A stretch of 64,000 nt of DNA from Chloroflexota bacterium (lineage in GTDB: Bacteria > Chloroflexota > UBA11872 > VXNJ01). The notes under the pieces were generated by a model that was given only the letters and a program-made list of their open reading frames with translations, did not search any database and was not told the DNA's origin. Below are positions 3,342 to 42,825 of this stretch, piece after piece (the first letter of the stretch is position 1; every line of letters starts with the position of its first letter). The stretch is from positions 1 to 64,000 of the forward strand of contig OZ253449.1 in assembly GCA_965261345.1 (NCBI GenBank), read 5' to 3'. The position numbers and the translations under genes were made by a program.

Positions 3342-5411
3342 GTGTCGGTCCCGTTCTTTTGTTCAAACATTGGAGAGCTGGCCTCGCTAAGACAGCGCTT
3401 CCGCCTTGCCGCCGATATAGGCGGCACCTTTACCGATATCGTTGCCCAGGACGTTTCGACTGGGGTGTGCCATGCAACCAAGGTCCTCTCGATCCCGGCC
3501 AACCCGGAGCTGGCCGTCGTCGCGGGCATCGACGCTGCCATTCCAAAATCCGCCGGACTCGATTTTTTCGTACACGGCACCACGGTCGGGCTCAATGCGG
3601 TCCTGACTCGGACCGGTGCCAGGGTCGCGCTGCTCACGACCCGCAATTTCAGGGACATCTACGCAATTCAGGGGAACGACCGCGGCGAGATCTTCTCGAT
3701 TCGCTGGAACAAACCCGAGCCGCTCGTTCCACTTGAAGACATCTACACCGCCCGCGAGCGGATTGCCGCGACTGGCGAGGTAGTTGAATCGCTCAATTCG
3801 GACGATGTGGAAGCGTTTGCGGATGCGGTTGGATCCGGGAAGTTCGAATCGATTGCCATCTGCTTCCTATTTGCTTTCAAGAACCCGACACACGAACTGG
3901 AGGCGGAGGCGATATTGCGGCGTCGCCTGCCGGAAATCGACATTGCTCTGTCGCACCGTGTCTCCCCGGAGTGGCGCGAATTCGAACGCACGTCCACGAC
4001 CGTTATGGATGGTTACGTGGCGCCGGTCATCCGAAGTTATTTGAACCGGTTGAAATGGCAAGTCCAGGACCGGCTCTCCCCTGGCCGTGCCTTGCATGTG
4101 ATGCAATCTAATGGTGGCGTTATGTCAACTGAAGCTGCGAGCAAGGCACCGTTGCAGACACTCCTTTCCGGACCGGTCGGTGGCGCGATAGGCGGCCGCG
4201 CCCTCGCGGAGGCAACTGGGCTCGGAAACCTGATCTGTATCGATATGGGCGGGACGTCGTTTGACGCCAGCCTGATCATTGACGGACTACCTTCGTCCTC
4301 CAACGAAGCAAGGATCGAGGGACTTCCGGTCCAGATGGCAGTGGTGGACATCAACGTGATCGGCGCCGGCGGCGGGTCGGTGGCGTGGCAGGAAGCCGGG
4401 GCGATCCGCGTAGGACCTAAGTCTGCCGGATCCGATCCAGGGCCTGTCTGTTACGGCCGTGGCGGTGATGAACCGACCGTTAGCGACGCCAATCTGGTGC
4501 TTGGGCGGTTGGGCAGTGCGAATTTCTCCGGTAGCCAGATAACCCTGGATGCGAAGGCGGCGGAACGGGCATTGAGCCAATTTGGCGCCCGGTTCGGATT
4601 GGATGCGTATGCGATGGCTCAAGGCATCATCGACATCATCAATGCCAAGATGGCCGACGCGATCCGCACCATCACCGTCAGGCGCGGCATTGATCCACGG
4701 GACTTCACGCTAGTCGCGTTTGGCGGCGCGGGCCCGGCACAGGCGGCGGCACTGGCTAACGACCTTGGCACGAAGGACGTCATTATCCCGGTGCATCCGG
4801 GCGCGTTTTCGGCCTGGGGAATGCTGCAAACTGATGTTCGACGCGACTTCAAAAGTACGCTCTACGGACCCTGGGATGGTATGGAGGCTTCCGATATCGG
4901 CGAGCGGTTTGCGGTACTCGAGTGTGAGGGGCAAAAGGGTCTCGAGGCCGAGGGGGTGCCGGCCGAACACGTGAATTTCGAACGTGCGATCGATTTCCGT
5001 TATCACGGCCAGGAATATGTGTTAACGATTCCGGTAGCGCATGGCCCGCTTGACATGACAGCCGTTCGTGAGGCGTTTGACGGAGCGTACCTGCGCCAAT
5101 ATGGGCATAACAACCCCGAGGCGCGGGCGGAGATGGCAAATGTACGGGTTGTTGCTGTGGGCAAGCTCGATCGGCCGCCATTGCCCGAACCCGGACCGGC
5201 AGAACCGGCGCCGGTGCGGCGCCGAAGGGTTTATTTCTCCGGCGAGGCCATGCCAACGAGCATCGTGCAACGTTCGGCGATCGGATCCGATACCATCATT
5301 TCCGGTCCGGCGATCATCGAGGAGGAGACGGCTACGACCCTGATTCCACCGGGATGGCAGGTCTCAACCATTACCGGCGGGCACCTACTTCTGAGTCGGG
5401 AAAAGCGTTAA
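3342..5411 (+). CDS. hydantoinase A/5-oxoprolinase family subunit
   Basis: DIGGTFTD, HGTTVGLNA, SGPVGG, DMGGTSFD, GAGGGS motifs; exact start uncertain. Confidence 0.92.
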   Translation: MSVPFFCSNIGELASLRQRFRLAADIGGTFTDIVAQDVSTGVCHATKVLSIPANPELAVVAGIDAAIPKSAGLDFFVHGTTVGLNAVLTRTGARVALLTTRNFRDIYAIQGNDRGEIFSIRWNKPEPLVPLEDIYTARERIAATGEVVESLNSDDVEAFADAVGSGKFESIAICFLFAFKNPTHELEAEAILRRRLPEIDIALSHRVSPEWREFERTSTTVMDGYVAPVIRSYLNRLKWQVQDRLSPGRALHVMQSNGGVMSTEAASKAPLQTLLSGPVGGAIGGRALAEATGLGNLICIDMGGTSFDASLIIDGLPSSSNEARIEGLPVQMAVVDINVIGAGGGSVAWQEAGAIRVGPKSAGSDPGPVCYGRGGDEPTVSDANLVLGRLGSANFSGSQITLDAKAAERALSQFGARFGLDAYAMAQGIIDIINAKMADAIRTITVRRGIDPRDFTLVAFGGAGPAQAAALANDLGTKDVIIPVHPGAFSAWGMLQTDVRRDFKSTLYGPWDGMEASDIGERFAVLECEGQKGLEAEGVPAEHVNFERAIDFRYHGQEYVLTIPVAHGPLDMTAVREAFDGAYLRQYGHNNPEARAEMANVRVVAVGKLDRPPLPEPGPAEPAPVRRRRVYFSGEAMPTSIVQRSAIGSDTIISGPAIIEEETATTLIPPGWQVSTITGGHLLLSREKR

Positions 5412-31890: not shown

Positions 31891-33105
31891 CGACGTGCTT
31901 TCGCGGATTCCTCTAGCCCGTATATCTCACCGGCCCCGCTAAATCAGGCGGCCGCCCAGGGGTAATCTGAAGAAGTAACAACACAACCTCAGCACCCGCA
32001 AGGCGGCCTGACCATGATGACAGAGTGTAATCAGCAGCAGCTCCAGTTCTGGGGACTTGGCCGCCGCCGGATAACGGCCAAGTTCGATGGCGGTCACCTG
32101 ACCTCCGATGGTGGTGGGTTGCTGTTGCGGGAAGTGGATCAGCGCATCGGCCTGCTCTCGCGTCTGGCGGGCTGCTTTAGCGACCACCGTAGCCCATCGG
32201 CAATAGAGCACAGCGTTGCAGACCTTATCGCCCAGCGCGTCTACGCCCTGGCGCTGGGCTACGAAGACCTAAACGACCACAACGCGCTGCGCTGCGATCC
32301 CGCCCTGGCGCTCATGGTGGGCAAGCGTGACCTTACCGGTCAGGACCGGCGGCGCCTGCGCGATAAGGGCAAGCCGCTGGCCTCGGCCAGCGCTCTTAAC
32401 CGCCTCGAGCTATCGCGTCCCGATAAGGCGCAGCAGGACCGCTACCGCAAGATCGCGGCTAACTTCTCCGGGATGGACGAGCTGCTCTGCGATCTCTTTC
32501 TGGAGGCGCACCAGCATCCTCCCCGGCAGATAGTCCTCGACCTTGACGCCACTTAACGATCCCCTGCACGGGGATCAGGAGGGACGCTTCTTCCACGGCT
32601 ACTACCGCTCCTACTGCTACCTTCCGCTGTACGTGTTCGGCGGCGAACACCTGCTGCTGGCAAGGCTGCGTCCGGCCGACCGCGATCCCGGTGCCGGGGT
32701 GGTGGCAGAACTCTCGCCGCTGATCGATCGGATCAGATCGGCCTGGCCGGATACCCGTATCATCCTGCGCGCCGATTCGGGCTTTGCCCGCGATCAGACC
32801 ATGACCTGGTGCGATAACAACGGTATCTACTATGTCTTCGGTCTGGCCCGCAATAAACGCCTGCAGCTGCTGCTGGGGAGAGCGCTGGCAAAGTCGCGGC
32901 GGCGCTATAGCGCAACCGGCAAGGCCTCACGGCGCTTTCGGCAGTTTCGTTACCGCACCATCAGTTCCTGGTCCAGGCGGCGGCGCGTGGTCGGTAAGGC
33001 CGAGCACCTGCCCAAGGGTCCCAATCCCAGATTCTTAGTCACCAACCTGCCCTCCTCCCGTATCGGCAAGCAGGCCCTCTACGAGCAGCTCTACTGTCCG
33101 CGGGA

Positions 33106-35172
33106 TCAGGTTGCATACTGCGCCTCATTGCTAACTTGCGACAGTTCGTCGGCGGTCCCCCCGGCGGCATGAGATGAACCGGCCCCGCCCGGCGGCCATT
33201 CGTAAAGACGCACGCCCTTGTCGTCGGCCAGATGGCCCACCAGCAGCCCGCGCCGCCGCCGGTCGCGGACTCCGCTCTCAGATATCCCAAGCCGCCCGGC
33301 GACCTCGTACACGCTAAGCAGGCCCCGATCGCGCAAACGCTGGTAGCGCGTGCGCAGCCCGTGGGCGTAGATCATGGCCTGCACGGCGGTGCGGGTGTAG
33401 CGCGCGCCCCGCGGCGGGCGGTGATCGCGCTGCCGCAGGATCTCCACGATCGCGCCGATCGTGTGGCCTTCAAGCGCTTCGTCGACCAGGGCGACGGTCT
33501 CGACCGGGGTGCGGTACAGCTGGGCGCCCGACATCGGCAGGGGCGCGGTCAGCTCGCGGGCGACCCCGCCGCGCAGACGCACTCCCAGCCTGATCTCCTC
33601 CTGGCCCCTTGACACCGTAACGTCCTCGACCAGCAGCCGCAGCATGCGCTTGCGCTCCCGGGCCGGGGTCCCGGGATCGTTCCACACCCTGGGGAAGTTG
33701 GTCGCAAGTTCGGCGATCCGCCGCTGCTGCTGACTGTCGAACCGTTGCCGATCCTGCTCGCGCCGGCGCTCGTACTCAGCGCCCGCCTGCTCGAGGCGCT
33801 GCAGGCAGGCGTTCCACTCGGCCTCCAGCACGTCGGCGACCATGCGGTTGTGCGGATCGGCCAATCGGTAGCGGCGGCCGGCCAGATCGGCCGCCTCGCG
33901 GACGCGCTGCACGGCCCGGGACCGCAGGCCGTCGGCCTCCCTGAGGCGGCGCTCCAGTTCGTCCTGTACGCCAAGCGCCAGTTGCAGTACCTGCGGAGTC
34001 ATCAGTTCGAGAGCCAGATCGGCTACGGCCCGGTCGATCCCCGCGCCGGCAATCGAGAGGCAGATCGGTCTGGCGTTGGCGATCCCGTCGCGGTGACATA
34101 CGTAGCGGGGCCTGGTGCGGGAGCCGTCGTAGCGCGTCTGCAGGTGGTTCCCGCATTTCCCGCAGATGGCCACCCCCTGCAGAAGGGCCGTCCCCTCGCG
34201 CGCCGGTCCCTGGCGGCGGTCGGCGCCATGGGCCCTGGCCGAGCGCGCCAGCTGGGCCTGGTTGGCCTCGAATCGCTCCCAGGAAATGTAGCCGGGATGG
34301 TGGTCCTTGATCAGGGCGATCCACTCGCTGCGCGGCGCCTTGGCTGACCGGCGGCTGCCGCCGCGCCGCCGCCGCTGGGTGCGTCCGTAGGCGTAAACCC
34401 CGGCGTAACCGGGGTTGTGCAGGATCGACAGCGCACGGCCGTGATCGAGATTGTTCCAGAAGAGTTCGCCCTTGCCCGGGCCCTTGCGGGACCGCAGCGG
34501 GATCAGCAGACCGTTCGCATTAAAGTACGCCACCACAGCCCGCGCCGAGCCGCTGCGCTGGAAGACGTCAAAGAACGTGCGCAGGGTCTCCTGCACCTGG
34601 GCGTCGGGGTCCGGCACCCAGCGGTCGAGAGGGTCGTAGCAGTATCCCACCGGCAGCGCGATCTTGAGCTCGCCGCGCCGCGCCTTGGCCAGAAGTCCAC
34701 CCCGCAGACGGGACTTCATAACGTGCAGCTCGGCTTCCGACATCGTGCCCTTCAGGCCCAGCAGCAGGCGGTCGTTGAAGCTGGACGGATCATATATCCC
34801 ATCCTCGTCCAGGATCAGGGTGTCCGACTGCGCGCACAGCTCCAGCAGGCGCTGCCAGTCGGCGTTATTGCGCGCCAGGCGCGAGACTTCCAGCCCCAGC
34901 ACCATCCCGACGTTGCCCAGGGACACCTCGGTAACCAGGCGTCGGAAGCCTTCGCGGTCCGAGTCGGCCCCCGAACGCCCAAGGTCGGAGTCAATCACGC
35001 ATATCCGGTCGGCATCCCAGCCCAGGGAGATGGCCCGACCCCGCAGGTCGTACTGGCGGCGGGTGCTCTCGCCATGCTCTACCACCTGCCGCAGGCTGGA
35101 CTGGCGCACGTACAGGTACGCCATGCGGTCGAGGTGGTCGGCGGTCACCTTGCCGCGGGTCTGATCGGTCAT
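33106..35172 (-). CDS. large serine recombinase
   Basis: YVRQSS catalytic Ser, SRLAR, CGKCG zinc ribbon, coiled coil, C-terminal HTH. Confidence 0.92.
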   Translation of the reverse strand: MTDQTRGKVTADHLDRMAYLYVRQSSLRQVVEHGESTRRQYDLRGRAISLGWDADRICVIDSDLGRSGADSDREGFRRLVTEVSLGNVGMVLGLEVSRLARNNADWQRLLELCAQSDTLILDEDGIYDPSSFNDRLLLGLKGTMSEAELHVMKSRLRGGLLAKARRGELKIALPVGYCYDPLDRWVPDPDAQVQETLRTFFDVFQRSGSARAVVAYFNANGLLIPLRSRKGPGKGELFWNNLDHGRALSILHNPGYAGVYAYGRTQRRRRGGSRRSAKAPRSEWIALIKDHHPGYISWERFEANQAQLARSARAHGADRRQGPAREGTALLQGVAICGKCGNHLQTRYDGSRTRPRYVCHRDGIANARPICLSIAGAGIDRAVADLALELMTPQVLQLALGVQDELERRLREADGLRSRAVQRVREAADLAGRRYRLADPHNRMVADVLEAEWNACLQRLEQAGAEYERRREQDRQRFDSQQQRRIAELATNFPRVWNDPGTPARERKRMLRLLVEDVTVSRGQEEIRLGVRLRGGVARELTAPLPMSGAQLYRTPVETVALVDEALEGHTIGAIVEILRQRDHRPPRGARYTRTAVQAMIYAHGLRTRYQRLRDRGLLSVYEVAGRLGISESGVRDRRRRGLLVGHLADDKGVRLYEWPPGGAGSSHAAGGTADELSQVSNEAQYAT

Positions 35173-35439
35173 CGGACCGCCCCGACCGGGGCGCGGTCAC
35201 CAGTTCCAGCAGGACGTCCACGATCTCCGCCGCAGCGCCCGGCGGCGCCGCCACCGGGTCCCGGCGGAGGGTCGGTTCGCAGCCGTCGTTGGCAAGCAGG
35301 GCCGCCAGTCCGCCCCGGCCCACCTGCTCCATCCGGCGCCAGTCGGCGGCCCCGTCGGGCCATAGCGCCTGGCGCCGCAGGCGCTCGTAGGTCGCGGTCG
35401 CGGTGGTTGGGGCAGCGCCCGGATCCAGATCCGGGCGGG

Positions 35440-35892
35440 TTAATTTTTTGCCCGCCGCAGCGCCCGCTCGATGCTGCGCCTATGCACCGACAGGCCGAAG
35501 CGCTCCTCGACCATCCCGACCAGGCGCCGCGACCCGATCCCGGGCCGCTCGGCCCGCACCGCCAACAGGTACTCCATGATCTCGGGCCCCAGCTTGCGGG
35601 CATGGCGCGGACCGGGGCGCTCGGATACAAGGCCGGCCAGGCCGCGCTCGGCGAACGCCCGCCTGGCCTTGTACCAGGTGGGGCGGGTGAACCCGAAGGT
35701 CCTGGCGCTCTGGGCGATCGACATCCCGTCGCGGCAGACCCGGCTAAGCATCTCGTAGCGCACCTGCACCAGGTCACAGGGGTCGAAGAAGGGATGCTCG
35801 CAGAAGAGATCGTCGCGCACCCGTTCCGGGTGGGGGTTGAGCGCCCCGCTGCGCCGCAGGACCTCCTGCTTGCTCTCGCCATCGGTCGCCAT
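35440..35892 (-). CDS. helix-turn-helix protein (LSR element)
   Basis: FFDP.DLVQVRYEML; ARTFGFTRPTWY HTH; GGAGG RBS. Confidence 0.8.
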   Translation of the reverse strand: MATDGESKQEVLRRSGALNPHPERVRDDLFCEHPFFDPCDLVQVRYEMLSRVCRDGMSIAQSARTFGFTRPTWYKARRAFAERGLAGLVSERPGPRHARKLGPEIMEYLLAVRAERPGIGSRRLVGMVEERFGLSVHRRSIERALRRAKN

Positions 35893-36082
35893 CGCAGTCC
35901 TCCATGCGGGCAATATGCAAATCCATTGTTGCCCCATCCATCGGATCTGTCAACGCCCTGACGGCCCTTTGGTCGGCACCGTTCGGCCTCCGCAATGCGT
36001 ACTACCATCTGTAGCAACATCCTGTTAATCGCAGTCAGGATGTAGGCTACGGTCGTAATTACGTTTACAGTGGCGGCTCCAA

Positions 36083-36394
36083 TCACTTTACGTCTCCAGC
36101 ATCTTTGGCAAGGCTCTCGACAAACTCGGCAAGCTCCAGCAGATCCCGGGCCCGGAACGGCGATCGGCCCCCGGCGGCGACAACGAACGGGTCCCGGGGC
36201 AGGTAGTCGGTAAATCCGACCGGGAAGGTGACGACGCGGCGGTCCCCGTCGTGGCAGAAGATCCTCTCCCGGCCCCAGCCGGCGGCGACGTTAATGACCC
36301 GGTAGCGCCTGCCGTACAAGGGGTGGTAGGGGTGGATTACGCGGATGCTGACTGTGGCGGGACGTATATCACCCGCAGTTGACGGGGTGGACCC
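36083..36394 (-). CDS. small DUF5372/Y4bD-like protein, start-less in the integrated state
   Basis: IHPYHPLYGRRY motif; frame open through the att core. Confidence 0.65.
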   Translation of the reverse strand, partial: GSTPSTAGDIRPATVSIRVIHPYHPLYGRRYRVINVAAGWGRERIFCHDGDRRVVTFPVGFTDYLPRDPFVVAAGGRSPFRARDLLELAEFVESLAKDAGDVK

Positions 36395-37537
36395 GCGGCG
36401 AGATGGAGAACCGCATCAAGGAGATGCAGCTGGCGCTGTTTTCCGACCGCACCAGCGCGGCCACCATTTCGGCCAACCAGCTGCGGCTGTATTTCTCCGG
36501 GTTCGCCTACCTGCTGCTCTATGGGCTGCGGCGACTGGGACTTAGCGGAACCGGTGATGCCCGCCTGCGCTGCGACACGCTGCGGCTACGGTTTCTCAAG
36601 ATTGCCGGCCGCCTGCGGATAACCCATCGCTGCATATGGTTGTCTCTGCCCACGGCCTATCCCTGGCAGAGGGACTTTGCCAGGATGCTGGCCAACCTGG
36701 CCAAGATCCCCATCCACCATATGTAGCCGGGGTAACTTGCGGCGCTTTCGGATAGGCCGGTGGCCAGGATCCCTGCCACCGCTGGGCGCAGAACCGATTC
36801 GGGCGCGCCCACGGTAGCCGATCGACCTCATTGGATGCGGATCGGCGGGCGGAGGCGGCCGCAATGGACGCGGCAAGATGGTTGGTGGCGGGAAATCAGT
36901 CTGAATTGGACCGATCAGCCGGGCCGGTGAAATATGCGGGCTAGCCCACACTTTGCACGGACCCGTTCAACCGGCCGCTATCGGCCGCCAATTTCGGTTA
37001 TCGGTTGCAGCCTGACCGGCTGACGCTCGCCTGACCGGCTCCCCCGCCTCCACTGTAAGCCGTTTGTAGGGTGATGGCCGGGCATTGGGCCCGGCTTCGC
37101 CGGGGATCTGAGCGCTTTACGCTGATCGCTGCGGGGCCGGCGCCGGCCCCGCGCTCAGGCTCCCGGGGCGCGCGCCTTTATCGGGGTCCGGCGCATGAGC
37201 CGGGCCAGTATTTGCGCGAACTCGTCCTGGTACGGATAGGCGGAAGAGAACTCCAGCAGGATCCGGCGGGTGCTCTGCCTTACCCGCACCGCCACCTTCA
37301 GGTAGCGCCGGCGGATGGTTCCCGCCAGCGGCCGCGGCGACGGGGTCAGTCGATCGGGCTCGCGATCCTGCCCGGCCGCGGCGGGATCGTCTATTCCCAG
37401 TCGCCGCAGGGCGGAGCAGAGCACGTAGGCAAGACCGGAGAAGTAGAGCCTGAGCTGGTTGGCCATGAACCTTGAGGCGCTGGCGCGGTCGGCATGGAGC
37501 TGCAACTGCTCGTAGATCCGGTTTTCGCAATCGCCAC

Positions 37538-37849
37538 GGGTCCACCCCGTCAACTGCGGGTGATATACGTCCCGCCACAGTCAGCATCCGCGTAATCCAC
37601 CCCTACCACCCCTTGTACGGCAGGCGCTACCGGGTCATTAACGTCGCCGCCGGCTGGGGCCGGGAGAGGATCTTCTGCCACGACGGGGACCGCCGCGTCG
37701 TCACCTTCCCGGTCGGATTTACCGACTACCTGCCCCGGGACCCGTTCGTTGTCGCCGCCGGGGGCCGATCGCCGTTCCGGGCCCGGGATCTGCTGGAGCT
37801 TGCCGAGTTTGTCGAGAGCCTTGCCAAAGATGCTGGAGACGTAAAGTGA
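37538..37849 (+). CDS. small DUF5372/Y4bD-like protein, start-less in the integrated state
   Basis: No ATG/GTG/TTG in frame inside the element before the HPYHP motif. Confidence 0.65.
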   Translation, partial: GSTPSTAGDIRPATVSIRVIHPYHPLYGRRYRVINVAAGWGRERIFCHDGDRRVVTFPVGFTDYLPRDPFVVAAGGRSPFRARDLLELAEFVESLAKDAGDVK

Positions 37850-38039
37850 TTGGAGCCGCCACTGTAAACGTAATTACGACCGTAGCCTACATCCTGACTG
37901 CGATTAACAGGATGTTGCTACAGATGGTAGTACGCATTGCGGAGGCCGAACGGTGCCGACCAAAGGGCCGTCAGGGCGTTGACAGATCCGATGGATGGGG
38001 CAACAATGGATTTGCATATTGCCCGCATGGAGGACTGCG

Positions 38040-38492
38040 ATGGCGACCGATGGCGAGAGCAAGCAGGAGGTCCTGCGGCGCAGCGGGGCGCTCAACCCCC
38101 ACCCGGAACGGGTGCGCGACGATCTCTTCTGCGAGCATCCCTTCTTCGACCCCTGTGACCTGGTGCAGGTGCGCTACGAGATGCTTAGCCGGGTCTGCCG
38201 CGACGGGATGTCGATCGCCCAGAGCGCCAGGACCTTCGGGTTCACCCGCCCCACCTGGTACAAGGCCAGGCGGGCGTTCGCCGAGCGCGGCCTGGCCGGC
38301 CTTGTATCCGAGCGCCCCGGTCCGCGCCATGCCCGCAAGCTGGGGCCCGAGATCATGGAGTACCTGTTGGCGGTGCGGGCCGAGCGGCCCGGGATCGGGT
38401 CGCGGCGCCTGGTCGGGATGGTCGAGGAGCGCTTCGGCCTGTCGGTGCATAGGCGCAGCATCGAGCGGGCGCTGCGGCGGGCAAAAAATTAA
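38040..38492 (+). CDS. helix-turn-helix protein (LSR element)
   Basis: Same as 35440-35892. Confidence 0.8.
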   Translation: MATDGESKQEVLRRSGALNPHPERVRDDLFCEHPFFDPCDLVQVRYEMLSRVCRDGMSIAQSARTFGFTRPTWYKARRAFAERGLAGLVSERPGPRHARKLGPEIMEYLLAVRAERPGIGSRRLVGMVEERFGLSVHRRSIERALRRAKN

Positions 38493-38941
38493 CCCGCCCG
38501 GATCTGGATCCGGGCGCTGCCCCAACCACCGCGACCGCGACCTACGAGCGCCTGCGGCGCCAGGCGCTATGGCCCGACGGGGCCGCCGACTGGCGCCGGA
38601 TGGAGCAGGTGGGCCGGGGCGGACTGGCGGCCCTGCTTGCCAACGACGGCTGCGAACCGACCCTCCGCCGGGACCCGGTGGCGGCGCCGCCGGGCGCTGC
38701 GGCGGAGATCGTGGACGTCCTGCTGGAACTGGTGACCGCGCCCCGGTCGGGGCGGTCCGATGACCGATCAGACCCGCGGCAAGGTGACCGCCGACCACCT
38801 CGACCGCATGGCGTACCTGTACGTGCGCCAGTCCAGCCTGCGGCAGGTGGTAGAGCATGGCGAGAGCACCCGCCGCCAGTACGACCTGCGGGGTCGGGCC
38901 ATCTCCCTGGGCTGGGATGCCGACCGGATATGCGTGATTGA
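38483..38941 (+). CDS. third ORF of LSR element, in the -1 frame relative to the HTH gene (mirror at 34991-35449, minus strand)
   Basis: Open frame KKLTRPDLDP...YERLRRQAL...MEQVGRGGLAALL. Confidence 0.5.
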   Translation, partial: KKLTRPDLDPGAAPTTATATYERLRRQALWPDGAADWRRMEQVGRGGLAALLANDGCEPTLRRDPVAAPPGAAAEIVDVLLELVTAPRSGRSDDRSDPRQGDRRPPRPHGVPVRAPVQPAAGGRAWREHPPPVRPAGSGHLPGLGCRPDMRD

Positions 38942-40826
38942 CTCCGACCTTGGGCGTTCGGGGGCCGACTCGGACCGCGAAGGCTTCCGACGCCTGGTTA
39001 CCGAGGTGTCCCTGGGCAACGTCGGGATGGTGCTGGGGCTGGAAGTCTCGCGCCTGGCGCGCAATAACGCCGACTGGCAGCGCCTGCTGGAGCTGTGCGC
39101 GCAGTCGGACACCCTGATCCTGGACGAGGATGGGATATATGATCCGTCCAGCTTCAACGACCGCCTGCTGCTGGGCCTGAAGGGCACGATGTCGGAAGCC
39201 GAGCTGCACGTTATGAAGTCCCGTCTGCGGGGTGGACTTCTGGCCAAGGCGCGGCGCGGCGAGCTCAAGATCGCGCTGCCGGTGGGATACTGCTACGACC
39301 CTCTCGACCGCTGGGTGCCGGACCCCGACGCCCAGGTGCAGGAGACCCTGCGCACGTTCTTTGACGTCTTCCAGCGCAGCGGCTCGGCGCGGGCTGTGGT
39401 GGCGTACTTTAATGCGAACGGTCTGCTGATCCCGCTGCGGTCCCGCAAGGGCCCGGGCAAGGGCGAACTCTTCTGGAACAATCTCGATCACGGCCGTGCG
39501 CTGTCGATCCTGCACAACCCCGGTTACGCCGGGGTTTACGCCTACGGACGCACCCAGCGGCGGCGGCGCGGCGGCAGCCGCCGGTCAGCCAAGGCGCCGC
39601 GCAGCGAGTGGATCGCCCTGATCAAGGACCACCATCCCGGCTACATTTCCTGGGAGCGATTCGAGGCCAACCAGGCCCAGCTGGCGCGCTCGGCCAGGGC
39701 CCATGGCGCCGACCGCCGCCAGGGACCGGCGCGCGAGGGGACGGCCCTTCTGCAGGGGGTGGCCATCTGCGGGAAATGCGGGAACCACCTGCAGACGCGC
39801 TACGACGGCTCCCGCACCAGGCCCCGCTACGTATGTCACCGCGACGGGATCGCCAACGCCAGACCGATCTGCCTCTCGATTGCCGGCGCGGGGATCGACC
39901 GGGCCGTAGCCGATCTGGCTCTCGAACTGATGACTCCGCAGGTACTGCAACTGGCGCTTGGCGTACAGGACGAACTGGAGCGCCGCCTCAGGGAGGCCGA
40001 CGGCCTGCGGTCCCGGGCCGTGCAGCGCGTCCGCGAGGCGGCCGATCTGGCCGGCCGCCGCTACCGATTGGCCGATCCGCACAACCGCATGGTCGCCGAC
40101 GTGCTGGAGGCCGAGTGGAACGCCTGCCTGCAGCGCCTCGAGCAGGCGGGCGCTGAGTACGAGCGCCGGCGCGAGCAGGATCGGCAACGGTTCGACAGTC
40201 AGCAGCAGCGGCGGATCGCCGAACTTGCGACCAACTTCCCCAGGGTGTGGAACGATCCCGGGACCCCGGCCCGGGAGCGCAAGCGCATGCTGCGGCTGCT
40301 GGTCGAGGACGTTACGGTGTCAAGGGGCCAGGAGGAGATCAGGCTGGGAGTGCGTCTGCGCGGCGGGGTCGCCCGCGAGCTGACCGCGCCCCTGCCGATG
40401 TCGGGCGCCCAGCTGTACCGCACCCCGGTCGAGACCGTCGCCCTGGTCGACGAAGCGCTTGAAGGCCACACGATCGGCGCGATCGTGGAGATCCTGCGGC
40501 AGCGCGATCACCGCCCGCCGCGGGGCGCGCGCTACACCCGCACCGCCGTGCAGGCCATGATCTACGCCCACGGGCTGCGCACGCGCTACCAGCGTTTGCG
40601 CGATCGGGGCCTGCTTAGCGTGTACGAGGTCGCCGGGCGGCTTGGGATATCTGAGAGCGGAGTCCGCGACCGGCGGCGGCGCGGGCTGCTGGTGGGCCAT
40701 CTGGCCGACGACAAGGGCGTGCGTCTTTACGAATGGCCGCCGGGCGGGGCCGGTTCATCTCATGCCGCCGGGGGGACCGCCGACGAACTGTCGCAAGTTA
40801 GCAATGAGGCGCAGTATGCAACCTGA
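38760..40826 (+). CDS. large serine recombinase
   Basis: Identical protein to 33106-35172. Confidence 0.92.
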   Translation: MTDQTRGKVTADHLDRMAYLYVRQSSLRQVVEHGESTRRQYDLRGRAISLGWDADRICVIDSDLGRSGADSDREGFRRLVTEVSLGNVGMVLGLEVSRLARNNADWQRLLELCAQSDTLILDEDGIYDPSSFNDRLLLGLKGTMSEAELHVMKSRLRGGLLAKARRGELKIALPVGYCYDPLDRWVPDPDAQVQETLRTFFDVFQRSGSARAVVAYFNANGLLIPLRSRKGPGKGELFWNNLDHGRALSILHNPGYAGVYAYGRTQRRRRGGSRRSAKAPRSEWIALIKDHHPGYISWERFEANQAQLARSARAHGADRRQGPAREGTALLQGVAICGKCGNHLQTRYDGSRTRPRYVCHRDGIANARPICLSIAGAGIDRAVADLALELMTPQVLQLALGVQDELERRLREADGLRSRAVQRVREAADLAGRRYRLADPHNRMVADVLEAEWNACLQRLEQAGAEYERRREQDRQRFDSQQQRRIAELATNFPRVWNDPGTPARERKRMLRLLVEDVTVSRGQEEIRLGVRLRGGVARELTAPLPMSGAQLYRTPVETVALVDEALEGHTIGAIVEILRQRDHRPPRGARYTRTAVQAMIYAHGLRTRYQRLRDRGLLSVYEVAGRLGISESGVRDRRRRGLLVGHLADDKGVRLYEWPPGGAGSSHAAGGTADELSQVSNEAQYAT

Positions 40827-41470
40827 TCCCGCGGACAGTATTCCAGTTCGTACAGGTCGCGTCCCGCTACCTGCTCGGTCGGCAGGCTGGTTACGACGAA
40901 GCGGGCGTTGGGCCGCGGCGGCCGGGGCGCGCCGTCCCGGCCGGTATGCCCGGGCAGGTACTCGGCCTTGCCCACCACCCGTCGGGTCCTGGACCAGGTC
41001 CCGGCAAGGGTCTGGTGGGTAAAGCCGCGGAAGCGCCGCGAGGGCTCCCCGCTTGCAAGGCAGCGCCGCCGCGAGCGCTCGAGCGGGCGGGCGATCTTTT
41101 TCTCCAGGCGCGGGTTGCGCGCCAGGCCGAAGAGGTAGTCGATCCCCTCCCGTTCGCACCAGGTCATGATCGGATCGCGGCCAAAGCCCGAGTCGCCGCG
41201 CAATACGATCTGCGTTTCGGGCCAGGCGGAGCGGATCTTCTCTACCAGCGGCGCGATCTCGGACACCGCATCCGACCCCGGGGCGCTATCGGAGGGGCGC
41301 AGGCGGCAAAGCAGCAGATGCTCGCCGCAAAACACGTACAGCGGTAGATAGCAATAGGAGTCGTAATACCCGTGGAAGAACCGTCCTTCTTGCTTGCCGT
41401 GCAGCTTCACGTCGGTGGCGTCCACGTCCAGGACGATGCGCGCCGGGGGAGCGGGATGAGATTCCTATAC

Positions 41471-42825
<1,355 letters not shown>

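Follow-up and report, generated by a model that had tools for sequence, protein, structure and literature searches.

As read from the DNA, the DUF5372 gene of a mobile element from a Chloroflexota bacterium is laid out so that only the excised circle holds it complete. The element measures 3.29 kb, occupies positions 37537-40831 of the window (the whole stretch of DNA analysed, 64,000 nucleotides) and contains the DUF5372 gene, an HTH gene and a gene for a large serine recombinase (LSR). We consider it probable that the 5' part of the DUF5372 gene contains attP and that the normal product is made only from the excised circle. The gene would then be expressed in the circle and silent in the integrated form.

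Ends of the element and the gene at its junction

The ends were determined by comparison of copies and by reconstruction of the target gene. Copy 1 (33101-36395, minus strand) is inverted and lies within another IS1380-type transposase gene; it shares an identical sequence with the element at 37537-40831 (copy 2) over positions 37537 to 40840, and the two diverge outside this span. When the IS1380-type transposase interrupted by copy 2 was read on the minus strand, a single CG was common to both junctions. This crossover core is located on the plus strand at 37537-37538 in the left junction (attL), where the flank corresponds to the reconstructed target through 37538 and the identity of the copies begins at 37537, and at 40830-40831 in the right junction (attR), as given by both approaches. 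The C-terminal part of the interrupted gene is found at 37155-37536 (minus strand; DDE_Tnp_1_4, profile positions 328-432) and its upstream part at 40832-41425 (minus strand; DDE_Tnp_1_4, profile positions 144-331). The elements are oriented antisense to the transposase genes which they interrupt. A second element of the same genome, with 45% identity in DUF5372, is inserted into an IS110-type gene.

The body of the DUF5372 gene comprises 103 codons and a stop at 37538-37849 on the plus strand and is part of a stop-to-stop ORF without a start of its own. It matches PF17342 with 67.9 bits (cut-off 25) over residues 19-95 of the frame from 37538 and profile positions 1-77 of 78. The domain starts at nt 37592 and the frame is open leftward to the end of the element, but no ATG, GTG or TTG is present in the codons from 37538 to 37591, in agreement with an earlier note on this DNA, which had found no standard start inside the element ahead of the conserved motif. 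This segment contains the codons of the N-terminal tail and at the same time the P' arm of attP (37539-37591, plus strand), with a half-site ACTGCG 14 nt from the core. The complete attP consists of two inverted half-sites, the half-site GGTGCAGT being mirrored 30 nt apart.

The missing head of the gene is located at the opposite end, in the P arm of attP (40806-40829, plus strand), which overlaps the last codons of the LSR gene. A GAGG (40806-40809) is followed after 6 nt by ATG 40816-40818, positioned 14 nt from the right end, so that four and two-thirds codons precede the core; the stop codon TGA of the LSR gene is at 40824-40826. The earlier proposal that this ATG continues in frame through the CG into a protein of 108 amino acids was reproduced by scripted joining of the ends: the resulting ORF has the N-terminus MQPDP, and the core falls between codons 5 and 6. 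The same had been claimed for copy 1, and the ends of copies 1 and 3 are indeed identical to those of copy 2. The second element of the genome shows the same in-frame arrangement at the junction and likewise has no start inside the element.

Conservation of the reading frame across attP

The earlier note had made its proposal depend on conservation of the frame in homologous elements. For the survey 82 elements were examined, of which 26 were not evaluable and 56 were scored. These 56 form 32 clusters at a DUF5372 identity of at least 70% and come from many phyla, and in 53 of them the junction ORF is in frame and open from an ATG or GTG. The frame is broken in the remaining three elements by a linker shifted by 1 nt (L058), by an additional C ahead of the core (L041) and by a stop together with a rearranged right end (L021). 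The script retained 52 elements, and in each of them the core dinucleotides, determined independently for the left and the right end, agree; this agreement was itself one of its selection criteria. The four other elements were assessed by inspection: TT forms the core on either side in L053 and is read at each end of L070, and the geometry is not matched by L021 and L041. For one lone element the chance of an in-frame junction is 1 in 3.

The right arms share the consensus GGAGG-N5-ATG/GTG-N11-core, and among 47 distinct junctions the start codon is ATG in 34 and GTG in 13. The search pattern for the right end already contained the SD motif and the RTG (8 of 14 positions), which introduces some ascertainment bias into these figures. 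The place of the block of SD motif and start codon is constant, whereas the LSR stop is found anywhere between 463 nt upstream of it and 8 nt downstream; conservation of the LSR coding sequence therefore does not explain the block.

If this block served only as a recombinase binding sequence, an integrated element could still produce DUF5372 by initiating at an internal or non-canonical codon (a Val GTG, TTG 37613 or ATC). Some observations fit such an explanation. The half-site GGTGCAGT, of which the left arm holds a mirrored counterpart, overlaps with the block, and in 26 of 47 elements GTG encodes a Val that precedes the HP-x-HP motif by two codons, a candidate weak internal start in these elements; gene callers and PGAP usually place the start at the Val positions near this motif. 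The two arms differ, however, in the features expected of a start signal: an SD-like motif is present in 42 of 47 right arms and in 2 of 47 mirrored left arms, and the RTG of the right arm has TGA or CGA as its counterpart in the left arm. The internal GTG is not preceded by an SD motif, the Val codon varies between GTG, GTC and GTA as expected for a sense codon, and 19 of the 47 distinct elements have no ATG, GTG or TTG at either Val position, the element of the window having ATC. Position TTG 37613, which the earlier note had named as a possible internal start, is located within the domain past the invariant residues H21, P22, H24 and P25, so that initiation there would remove the HP-x-HP motif, and no conserved internal start was found across the 47 distinct elements.

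The open frame upstream of the domain also speaks against a mere binding sequence. Stops are absent from frame 0 in all 51 junction segments, compared with 46 and 44 of 51 segments with stops in frames +1 and +2; over about 25 codons upstream, frame 0 is open in 51/51 segments and the other two frames in about 10%. The linkers have lengths of 14, 15, 17 and 18 codons, and all indels within them are multiples of three. Conservation of the frame follows in part from the geometry of attP, since the half-site spacing of 30 nt is itself a multiple of three. The codon entropy of the tail is 1.36, 1.39 and 1.52 at positions 1, 2 and 3 and its amino acids are not conserved; the case for translation of the tail is therefore made by openness and frame only. 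Taken together, we regard a pure binding function of the block with internal initiation as improbable, and a split gene with its start in the right arm as the better reading.

Promoter, operon and the integrated state

A sigma-70-like promoter, TTGACA-17-AACAAT, is located at 37979-38007 (plus strand), downstream of the DUF5372 body. It is the sole site of this type in the element (1 found, 0.2 expected), and a homologous site scoring at least 9/12 was detected in 35 of 52 elements compared with 0 of 52 control segments. The -35 and -10 boxes lie together inside the element, and the junction carries the SD motif, the start codon and coding sequence, but no split promoter. Because the conserved promoter is downstream of DUF5372, the gene stands behind it in the circle only. 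An 8-bp inverted repeat on the plus strand (37889-37915; arms 37889-37896 and 37908-37915), a possible operator or hairpin, is situated in the AT-richer spacer after DUF5372 and occurs in the MFE fold.

The HTH gene (HTH_32/HTH_23) extends from 38040 to 38492 on the plus strand. Translation probably begins at ATG 38040, which is preceded by GGAGGA; the longest ORF extends back to 37995, and homologues align from about residue 21 of this long ORF. It is followed on the same strand by an open frame (38453-38759) which may represent a small gene of uncertain limits. This frame is conserved only in the second element of the genome, and a 'hypothetical protein' is annotated at the equivalent place in a Rhodococcus plasmid. 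The LSR gene (38760-40826, plus strand) encodes 688 amino acids with Resolvase, Recombinase and Zn_ribbon_recom domains, and integration leaves its ORF complete. PF00239 (68.1 bits) and PF07508 (68.6 bits) score above their cut-offs; the zinc ribbon PF13408 reaches 25.2 bits, slightly below the cut-off of 25.3, and cysteines 337, 340, 359 and 371 are invariant.

With these components the element would be an integrative, IS-like unit moved by the LSR. The circle would read as a single operon of promoter, HTH gene, possibly the small ORF, LSR and DUF5372, the last starting from an SD motif and an ATG overlapping the LSR stop and crossing the core after five codons. Integration would sever the gene: promoter, SD motif, ATG and five codons would remain at the right end, and the other 103 codons would come to lie ahead of the promoter at the left end, without a start. 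Recombination itself would in this way toggle a directionality cofactor on and off. The earlier note had placed such a switch at translation initiation. The start codon is indeed split off, but transcription would be lost as well, since the promoter is downstream of DUF5372. Its broader statement, that recombination turns the gene on in the circle and off upon integration, agrees with the conserved split layout, from which the two expression states are deduced.

Silence of the integrated gene would be lifted if it were read from the flanking target, so that the neighbourhood and not circularisation acted as the switch. The frame continues open beyond the left end, with an in-frame TTG at 37472 in the case of copy 2, and 22 of 49 distinct left ends contain some in-frame ATG, GTG or TTG before the domain. 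On the other hand, this start lies behind an SD-like motif in only 4 of the 49, and in 27 of the 49 no in-frame start follows the upstream stop before the domain is reached. TTG 37472 is missing in copy 3, and copy 1 and the second element are startless; in copy 1 an in-frame stop occurs 7 codons beyond the left end with no start codon in between. As the elements are antisense to their target genes, there is also no conserved upstream gene for read-in. We consider this explanation very improbable, and expression from the circle remains the preferred reading.

A scan of metagenome contigs with the junction pattern yielded 7 matches, 5 of them with the LSR C-terminus upstream. Three of these 5 contigs carry DUF5372 as an intact ORF that continues in frame from an ATG or GTG, contiguous with the LSR and the junction. 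In two others of the 7 (L085 and L088) a truncated DUF5372 is followed by unrelated genes. The junction contigs could represent tandem copies instead of circles. The end-to-end joint of the element in the window was not found in the contigs searched, and no junction form was found among 401 genomes of the phylum.

Predicted contact with the recombinase and relation to known systems

DUF5372 is predicted to fold into a small barrel with a helix. Co-folding with the LSR, which the earlier note had suggested, gave an ipSAE of 0.77 (0.77, 0.76 and 0.77 in the individual runs) compared with 0.00 for the best of 3 controls; of 80 solved complexes 58 attain the ipSAE mark, as do 2 of 110 mismatched pairs. 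The runs share at least 81% of contacts, and the pLDDT of the partner is at least 70. In the LSR model, helices 393-437 and 443-475 form a coiled coil (393-475) inserted in the zinc-ribbon domain, and the predicted interface (336-341, 390-410, 473-514 and 519-538) comprises the zinc ribbon and the base of this coiled coil. It matches the hotspot described for RDFs on serine integrases (PMC11795197). The suggestion that the protein might be a directionality factor gains support from this model, a prediction that is neutral as to the direction of its action.

We think that DUF5372 would most likely promote the integration of the circle, or lock the integrated state, and not promote excision, since a classical excision factor produced only in the circle would block re-insertion. 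A more elaborate version can be put forward tentatively: a cofactor of reversed logic, made only in the circle and acting at the RDF hotspot, would drive or lock integration and thereby destroy its own gene, in a family that targets the transposases of other elements. The insertions of the family appear to be always antisense and at catalytic-motif codons of transposases and recombinases of other mobile elements. It is unlikely, by comparison, that the gene is split but its protein is a classical excision factor or serves something other than directionality, for instance repression of the operon or DNA binding. A first circle would provide a factor excising other copies, and the predicted site is that of excision-promoting RDFs (PMC11795197, PMC5814800). 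In favour of an unrelated role, the small SH3-like barrel is a generic fold, and the search against the PDB gave no significant match (best E 0.023). From RDF behaviour as described in PMC11722253, however, a circle-only excision factor would be expected to inhibit attP x attB and so to block re-insertion.

DUF5372 has no sequence or fold relation to any of the known RDFs (phiC31 gp3, TG1/Bxb1, SPbeta), and, also after literature searches, RDF genes are not known to be interrupted by attP. The arrangement resembles that of the SSV1-type ('suicidal') archaeal integrases, with an attachment site inside a gene of the element that is intact only in the circle (PMC8371274). In the archaeal case the cut falls in the middle of the tyrosine integrase gene; here it falls in an accessory gene, five codons after the start, and the recombinase is a bacterial LSR that stays intact. 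According to the same review, self-disrupting recombinases are known only in archaea (PMC8371274). A second parallel is the integration-dependent immunity of mycobacteriophage BPs, in which attP lies in a regulatory gene beside the integrase gene and integration alters the product: the 3' end is lost and the prophage produces a shorter, stable repressor (PMC4557955). In our case the 5' end with promoter, SD motif and start would be lost and the integrated form should make nothing; the type of recombinase and of element also differ, and the split gene is neither a recombinase as in SSV nor an immunity repressor as in BPs.

The joining of ends also activates a gene required for the next step in the circle-junction promoters of Tn4451/Tn4453 (TnpX), ICEclc (Pcirc) and ICEKp1 (P3'end) (PMC13023037, citing Lyras and Rood 2000 for Tn4451) and in those of IS minicircles and IS110. 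In those systems a promoter is assembled or relocated and the coding sequence remains undivided in either state, whereas here the internal promoter is complete and conserved and the ORF with its translation start is split. The parallel to IS110 drawn earlier holds for activation by end joining; the effect would not be on translation alone, as the promoter is separated as well.

In phage serine integrases a separately regulated RDF decides between integration and excision. Small serine-recombinase transposons must exit and re-enter DNA within one cell, and a cofactor gene assembled only in the circle would be a simple answer to this problem, a built-in sensor of the state of the element. If the reversed logic is true, the element would be a self-resetting two-state switch, in which a serine integrase works as an intracellular transposase without an outside signal. 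The compact pair of integrase and cofactor, with att sites of a defined 2-nt core, could serve genome engineering. The homologues, named 'Y4bD/Y4pK family protein' or 'DUF5372 family protein' in their source records, belong to an uncharacterised family with hundreds of copies across phyla; with the gene split as proposed, current annotation places their starts at the wrong codon, and the family gains a testable role.

The probable split gene in the element and its copies

The element studied here (copy 2, 37537-40831, + strand, 3.29 kb) contains four reading frames, all on one strand. One of them matches DUF5372 (PF17342) with 67.9 bits at a cut-off of 25; two others encode an HTH_32/HTH_23 protein and a 688-aa large serine recombinase (LSR), which has Resolvase and Recombinase domains as well as a borderline match to Zn_ribbon_recom, and the status of the remaining open frame is uncertain. 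The inverted copy 1 (33101-36395, - strand) is identical to copy 2 over 37537-40840 in copy-2 coordinates, and copy 3 (genome ~1,054,950-1,058,240) differs from copy 2 at 6 positions over 3494 nt. The genes split by copies 1 and 2 encode IS1380-type transposases (DDE_Tnp_1_4) and run on the opposite strand; in both cases the element is inserted at the Y-C-x-R-G-x-x-E-N codons. Comparison of the flanks with the interrupted transposase reading frame revealed one CG common to both junctions; a 2-nt core is expected for a serine recombinase.

In the frame opening at 37538 the DUF5372 domain begins with residue 19, corresponding to nt 37592. ATG, GTG and TTG are all absent from the 18 codons ahead of the domain, and the frame is open through the left end, as an earlier note had claimed. 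At the right end a GAGG (40806-40809) is followed after 6 nt by an ATG (40816-40818) within the last LSR codons, and the LSR stop is located at 40824-40826. When the two ends were joined by script at the CG, the in-frame ORF of 108 aa proposed in that note was reproduced. When integrated, neither copy 1, whose frame meets a stop 7 codons beyond the element, nor copy 3 has a start; copy 2, the only one of the three with an upstream start codon, has a TTG at 37472 without SD. An internal TTG at 37613, named earlier as a start that would speak against a split gene, was rejected as the natural start because it is located past the invariant H, P, H, P residues near the beginning of the domain (HP-x-HP).

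In the structural model of the LSR, residues ~549-688 (40400-40826) form an extra helical C-terminal region with helices at 549-640. The tail 664-688, which overlaps the SD and start of DUF5372, is disordered with a pLDDT below 50, and its length differs across the family as the stop shifts relative to the DUF5372 start.

The interrupted IS1380 flanks of copy 2 recur around copy 3 (genome ~1,054,351-1,058,876) with 98.7-100% identity over ~600 nt on each side, so the IS1380 and its insert were duplicated or moved as one unit. The IS1380 hosting copy 2 is also split by an IS110-family element (~41465-42612) with many near-identical copies in the genome, which results in three layers of nested mobile elements.

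A second, diverged DUF5372-HTH-LSR element splits an IS110-type transposase gene at genome 139015-142305, and its exact ends were fixed from intact copies of this target gene. Its identity to the window element is 45% for DUF5372, 56% for the HTH protein and about 47-63% for the LSR. It also has no start inside the element, and joining its ends gives an ORF that reads in frame from an ATG preceded by GAGG. Its LSR is frameshifted, with two frames overlapping around residues 172-296 in tblastn, and the element is probably not autonomous. The in-frame joins in both elements of this genome were down-weighted as independent evidence, because the 30-nt spacing of the half-sites fixes part of the frame.

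Conservation of the junction across the family

A profile scan using one genome per species yielded at least 600 pattern matches, with at least 419 confirmed by tblastn, and the best 80 loci were analyzed. These best 80 of at least 419 are located in Acidobacteriota, Planctomycetota, Actinomycetota, Chloroflexota, Proteobacteria, Spirochaetia and others, and nearly all of them show the gene order DUF5372-HTH-LSR within about 3.3 kb. The left ends have a common layout of flank, 2-nt core, 14 nt, ACTGCAC, about 15 codons and HP-x-HP, and the right ends consist of GGAGGTGCAGT, ATG or GTG, 11 nt and the core. GGTGCAGT is mirrored between the arms, the two blocks being 30 nt apart and the core lying midway; judged by this layout, the arms around the core are an attP, the joined site of the circle, with two half-sites.

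Together with the two elements of this genome 82 elements were examined. Thirteen could not be evaluated due to a contig end (12 were too short and L022 stops inside the right-end block), and 13 further loci due to a missing, truncated or interrupted LSR or the lack of a right end (L005, L007, L008, L009, L011, L028, L029, L034, L037, L050, L057, L068 and L074). When homologues were circularized in silico, as the earlier note had proposed, the start was in frame with DUF5372 and the junction ORF was open in 53 of the 56 evaluable elements, although part of this frame conservation comes from the attP geometry, because the 30-nt half-site spacing is a multiple of three. The 53 comprise 51 of 52 elements picked by script, L053, and L070, which was read by eye and has CTG as first and ATG as second codon. 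The three failures are a 1-nt shift of the linker (L058), an extra C in the C-run before the core (L041) and a stop combined with a rearranged right end (L021).

Left and right cores are equal in all 52 script-picked elements, equality being a selection criterion, with TT in 50 cases, CT in one and CG in the element described here; L053 has equal TT cores and L070 shows TT at both ends by eye. At DUF5372 identities of at least 90%, 70% and 60% the 52 elements form 40, 32 and 8 clusters. They are not independent by this comparison, yet many lineages are represented.

Several controls concern the frame itself. Between the start and HP-x-HP (about 25 codons) no stop was found in frame 0 in any of 51 segments, compared with 46 of 51 in frame +1 and 44 of 51 in frame +2. 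From ACT to the His codon the linker comprises 14, 15, 17 or 18 codons and is a multiple of three except in L058. The entropy at codon positions 1/2/3 is 1.36/1.39/1.52 in the tail and 0.42/0.48/1.29 in the domain. A conserved amino acid sequence of the tail was dropped as an argument due to the similar entropy at its three positions, so for the tail only the frame and its openness count.

Other controls concern the start signal. Of 47 distinct junctions, 34 have ATG and 13 have GTG as start codon. An SD-like GAGG/GGAG/AGGA is located upstream in 42 of 47 right arms, for which the search pattern itself contained SD and RTG, versus 2 of 47 mirrored left arms, and the mirrored place of the start codon in the left arm is occupied by TGA or CGA. 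The start signal thus belongs to one arm only, and the symmetric recombinase site does not include it. SD and start keep a fixed distance to the element end as a block, whereas the position of the LSR stop relative to the start varies between 463 nt upstream and 8 nt downstream; since the stop moves while the block stays, the block is not kept as LSR coding sequence. The Val codon usually called as start varies between GTG, GTC, GTA and ATC, and in 19 of 47 elements neither candidate Val has a canonical start. Among 49 distinct integrated left ends 27 have no in-frame ATG, GTG or TTG between the upstream stop and the domain, and only 4 have an in-frame start behind an SD-like motif.

On the Rhodococcus opacus plasmid pLPS8 (L092) the similarity covers 4501-4791 and thus begins at 4501, and the annotated CDS is 4540-4791. 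Annotation pipelines begin DUF5372 at the internal GTG of the conserved V-R-V-T-H motif on pLPS8 as well as in P0003, P0005, P0015 and others. Annotated DUF5372 starts are probably truncated family-wide.

Joined ends and the putative promoter

A degenerate junction pattern matched none of 86 integrated sequences (84 loci and two genome slices), and gave no matches in 401 genomes of the phylum of the window or in viral contigs. Seven metagenome contigs were matched, two of them by chance (L086 and L091). In 5 of the 7 the C-terminus of an LSR is located directly upstream of the junction. Three of these five, L087, L089 and L090, contain an intact DUF5372 ORF of 119, 102 and 103 aa that starts at the GTG or ATG and extends across the junction. 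In L085 and L088 the DUF5372 frame ends after the start of the domain, with the first ~27 codons present, and the genes behind it are chromosomal and unrelated, among them a SnoaL-like gene, a STAS gene and a response regulator; these two contigs look like fossils, i.e. joined-form remnants fixed in a chromosome. The joined form exists as DNA in these metagenome contigs, and both circles and tandem copies are compatible with it. In the assemblies of two sequencing runs the element is a contig of its own with 3301 nt that stops at the element ends. No end-to-end joint was reported in the contigs of 4 sequencing runs, but contigs drop rare forms and are uninformative either way.

The element contains a single sigma-70-like site, TTGACA-17-AACAAT (37979-38007; 1 found, 0.2 expected), placed between the DUF5372 stop and the HTH gene. 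A site with at least 9 of 12 matches, mostly TTGACA-16/17-CATAAT, is present ~120 nt past the DUF5372 stop in 35 of 52 elements, compared with 0 of 52 equal-length segments inside the LSR gene. The G+C content of the spacer with this site is 53% versus 66% for the elements. Since the promoter-like site is located after the DUF5372 stop, the integrated DUF5372 gene would lie upstream of the promoter of its element. In the circle DUF5372 would be the last gene of the operon, with a start overlapping or following the LSR stop. Sequence and comparison show that codons 5 and 6 of DUF5372 are separated by attP and that only the joined form aligns the putative promoter, SD, start and body of the gene.

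Predicted LSR contact and proposed role

The DUF5372 model (mean pLDDT 75) consists of a disordered tail (1-11), a small four-stranded barrel and a C-terminal helix. A fold search against the PDB gave no significant match, the best E value being 0.023 (NdhS, PsaE and KOW-type small barrels), and NCBIfam gave only a chance match to fructose-bisphosphatase far below the cut-off. The co-folding with the LSR suggested in the earlier note gave a positive result: with both proteins supplied as alignments the ipSAE was 0.77 (0.77, 0.76 and 0.77 in the individual runs) versus 0.00 for the best of 3 controls. Of 80 solved complexes 58 reach the mark used for co-folds, as do 2 of 110 mismatched pairs; these counts are a rough guide, as our own alignments were used. 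Contacts agreed by at least 81% between runs and the pLDDT of the partner was at least 70. On DUF5372 the predicted contacts comprise residues 21-26 (HP-x-HP) and 68-99, and on the LSR residues 336-341, 390-410, 473-514 and 519-538. In the model these LSR regions are the zinc ribbon, both ends of the 393-437/443-475 coiled coil and the following helices and strands. According to excerpts of published work, recombination directionality factors (RDFs) act at the zinc domain and coiled-coil base of the integrase (PMC11795197), gp3 binds via the zinc domain (PMC5814800) and the RDF drives repositioning of an integrase subdomain (PMC11722253). The co-fold, a prediction, supports binding of DUF5372 to the LSR at this RDF hotspot and does not indicate the direction of action.

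We consider it likely that DUF5372 is a split gene, whose protein the circle would produce but the integrated copy would not. A role of the protein as LSR-binding directionality cofactor, with predicted binding at the RDF hotspot, is slightly favored. DUF5372 might promote or lock integration, or displace a different cofactor, for example the product of the HTH gene or of the small ORF; these modes seem more plausible than excision, because an excision factor made only by the circle would block re-insertion of this very circle. That it favors integration in particular is a tentative suggestion.

Circle-junction promoters are known from IS minicircles and IS110. They also turn on a gene by joining ends in ICEclc, ICEKp1 and Tn4451 (passages of PMC13023037). 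In SSV-type archaeal integrases an element gene is whole only in the circle, the att site being inside the integrase gene itself, and such self-disrupting recombinases are found only in archaea according to the excerpted review (PMC8371274). In the integration-dependent immunity of mycobacteriophage BPs attP lies inside a regulatory gene (excerpts of PMC4557955). In contrast to these systems, the recombinase described here is a bacterial LSR and intact, the putative promoter is internal and complete, and the coding sequence is cut five codons past the start of an accessory gene, a predicted LSR binder. A literature search by name found no paper for DUF5372, and matches to y4bD were irrelevant. 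Searches on serine recombinases, circular forms, attP and transposase genes, with supplements outside their scope, found no paper on this family. The searched text of the Durrant et al. preprint mentions DUF4368 and not DUF5372; its LSR/att-site tables, outside the search, could list members.

The flanks of L006-L084 and of both elements of this genome indicate that the family enters genes of other mobile elements, always antisense and at codons of conserved catalytic or signature motifs. We take these motifs to include K-G-K-V-E in IS21-type, D-N-A-x-x-E in IS3-type, N-A-x-A-E-R in IS481-type and N-G-R-I-E in ISL3-type targets, Y-C-x-R-G-x-x-E-N of IS1380 in this window, the first Asp motif of IS110 for the second element, G-K-G-G of a tyrosine recombinase (L018) and HNH (L059 and L063). 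The target flanks are 37155-37536 and 40832-41425 (- strand, IS1380) for the window element and genome 138713-139014 and 142302-142531 (IS110) for the second one; only IS1380 was checked against Pfam. Copy 3 has the flanks of copy 2. The HTH protein (38040-38492) has similarity to the DNA-binding N-terminus of transposases from IS481, IS630, IS3 and IS21 (NCBIfam, best E 3e-13, every match below its cut-off), and genes of these kinds are the ones that the family enters.

Precise excision would restore the interrupted target genes. The arrangement is kept across phyla, and through it the question of how serine-recombinase transposons control directionality becomes accessible to direct tests.
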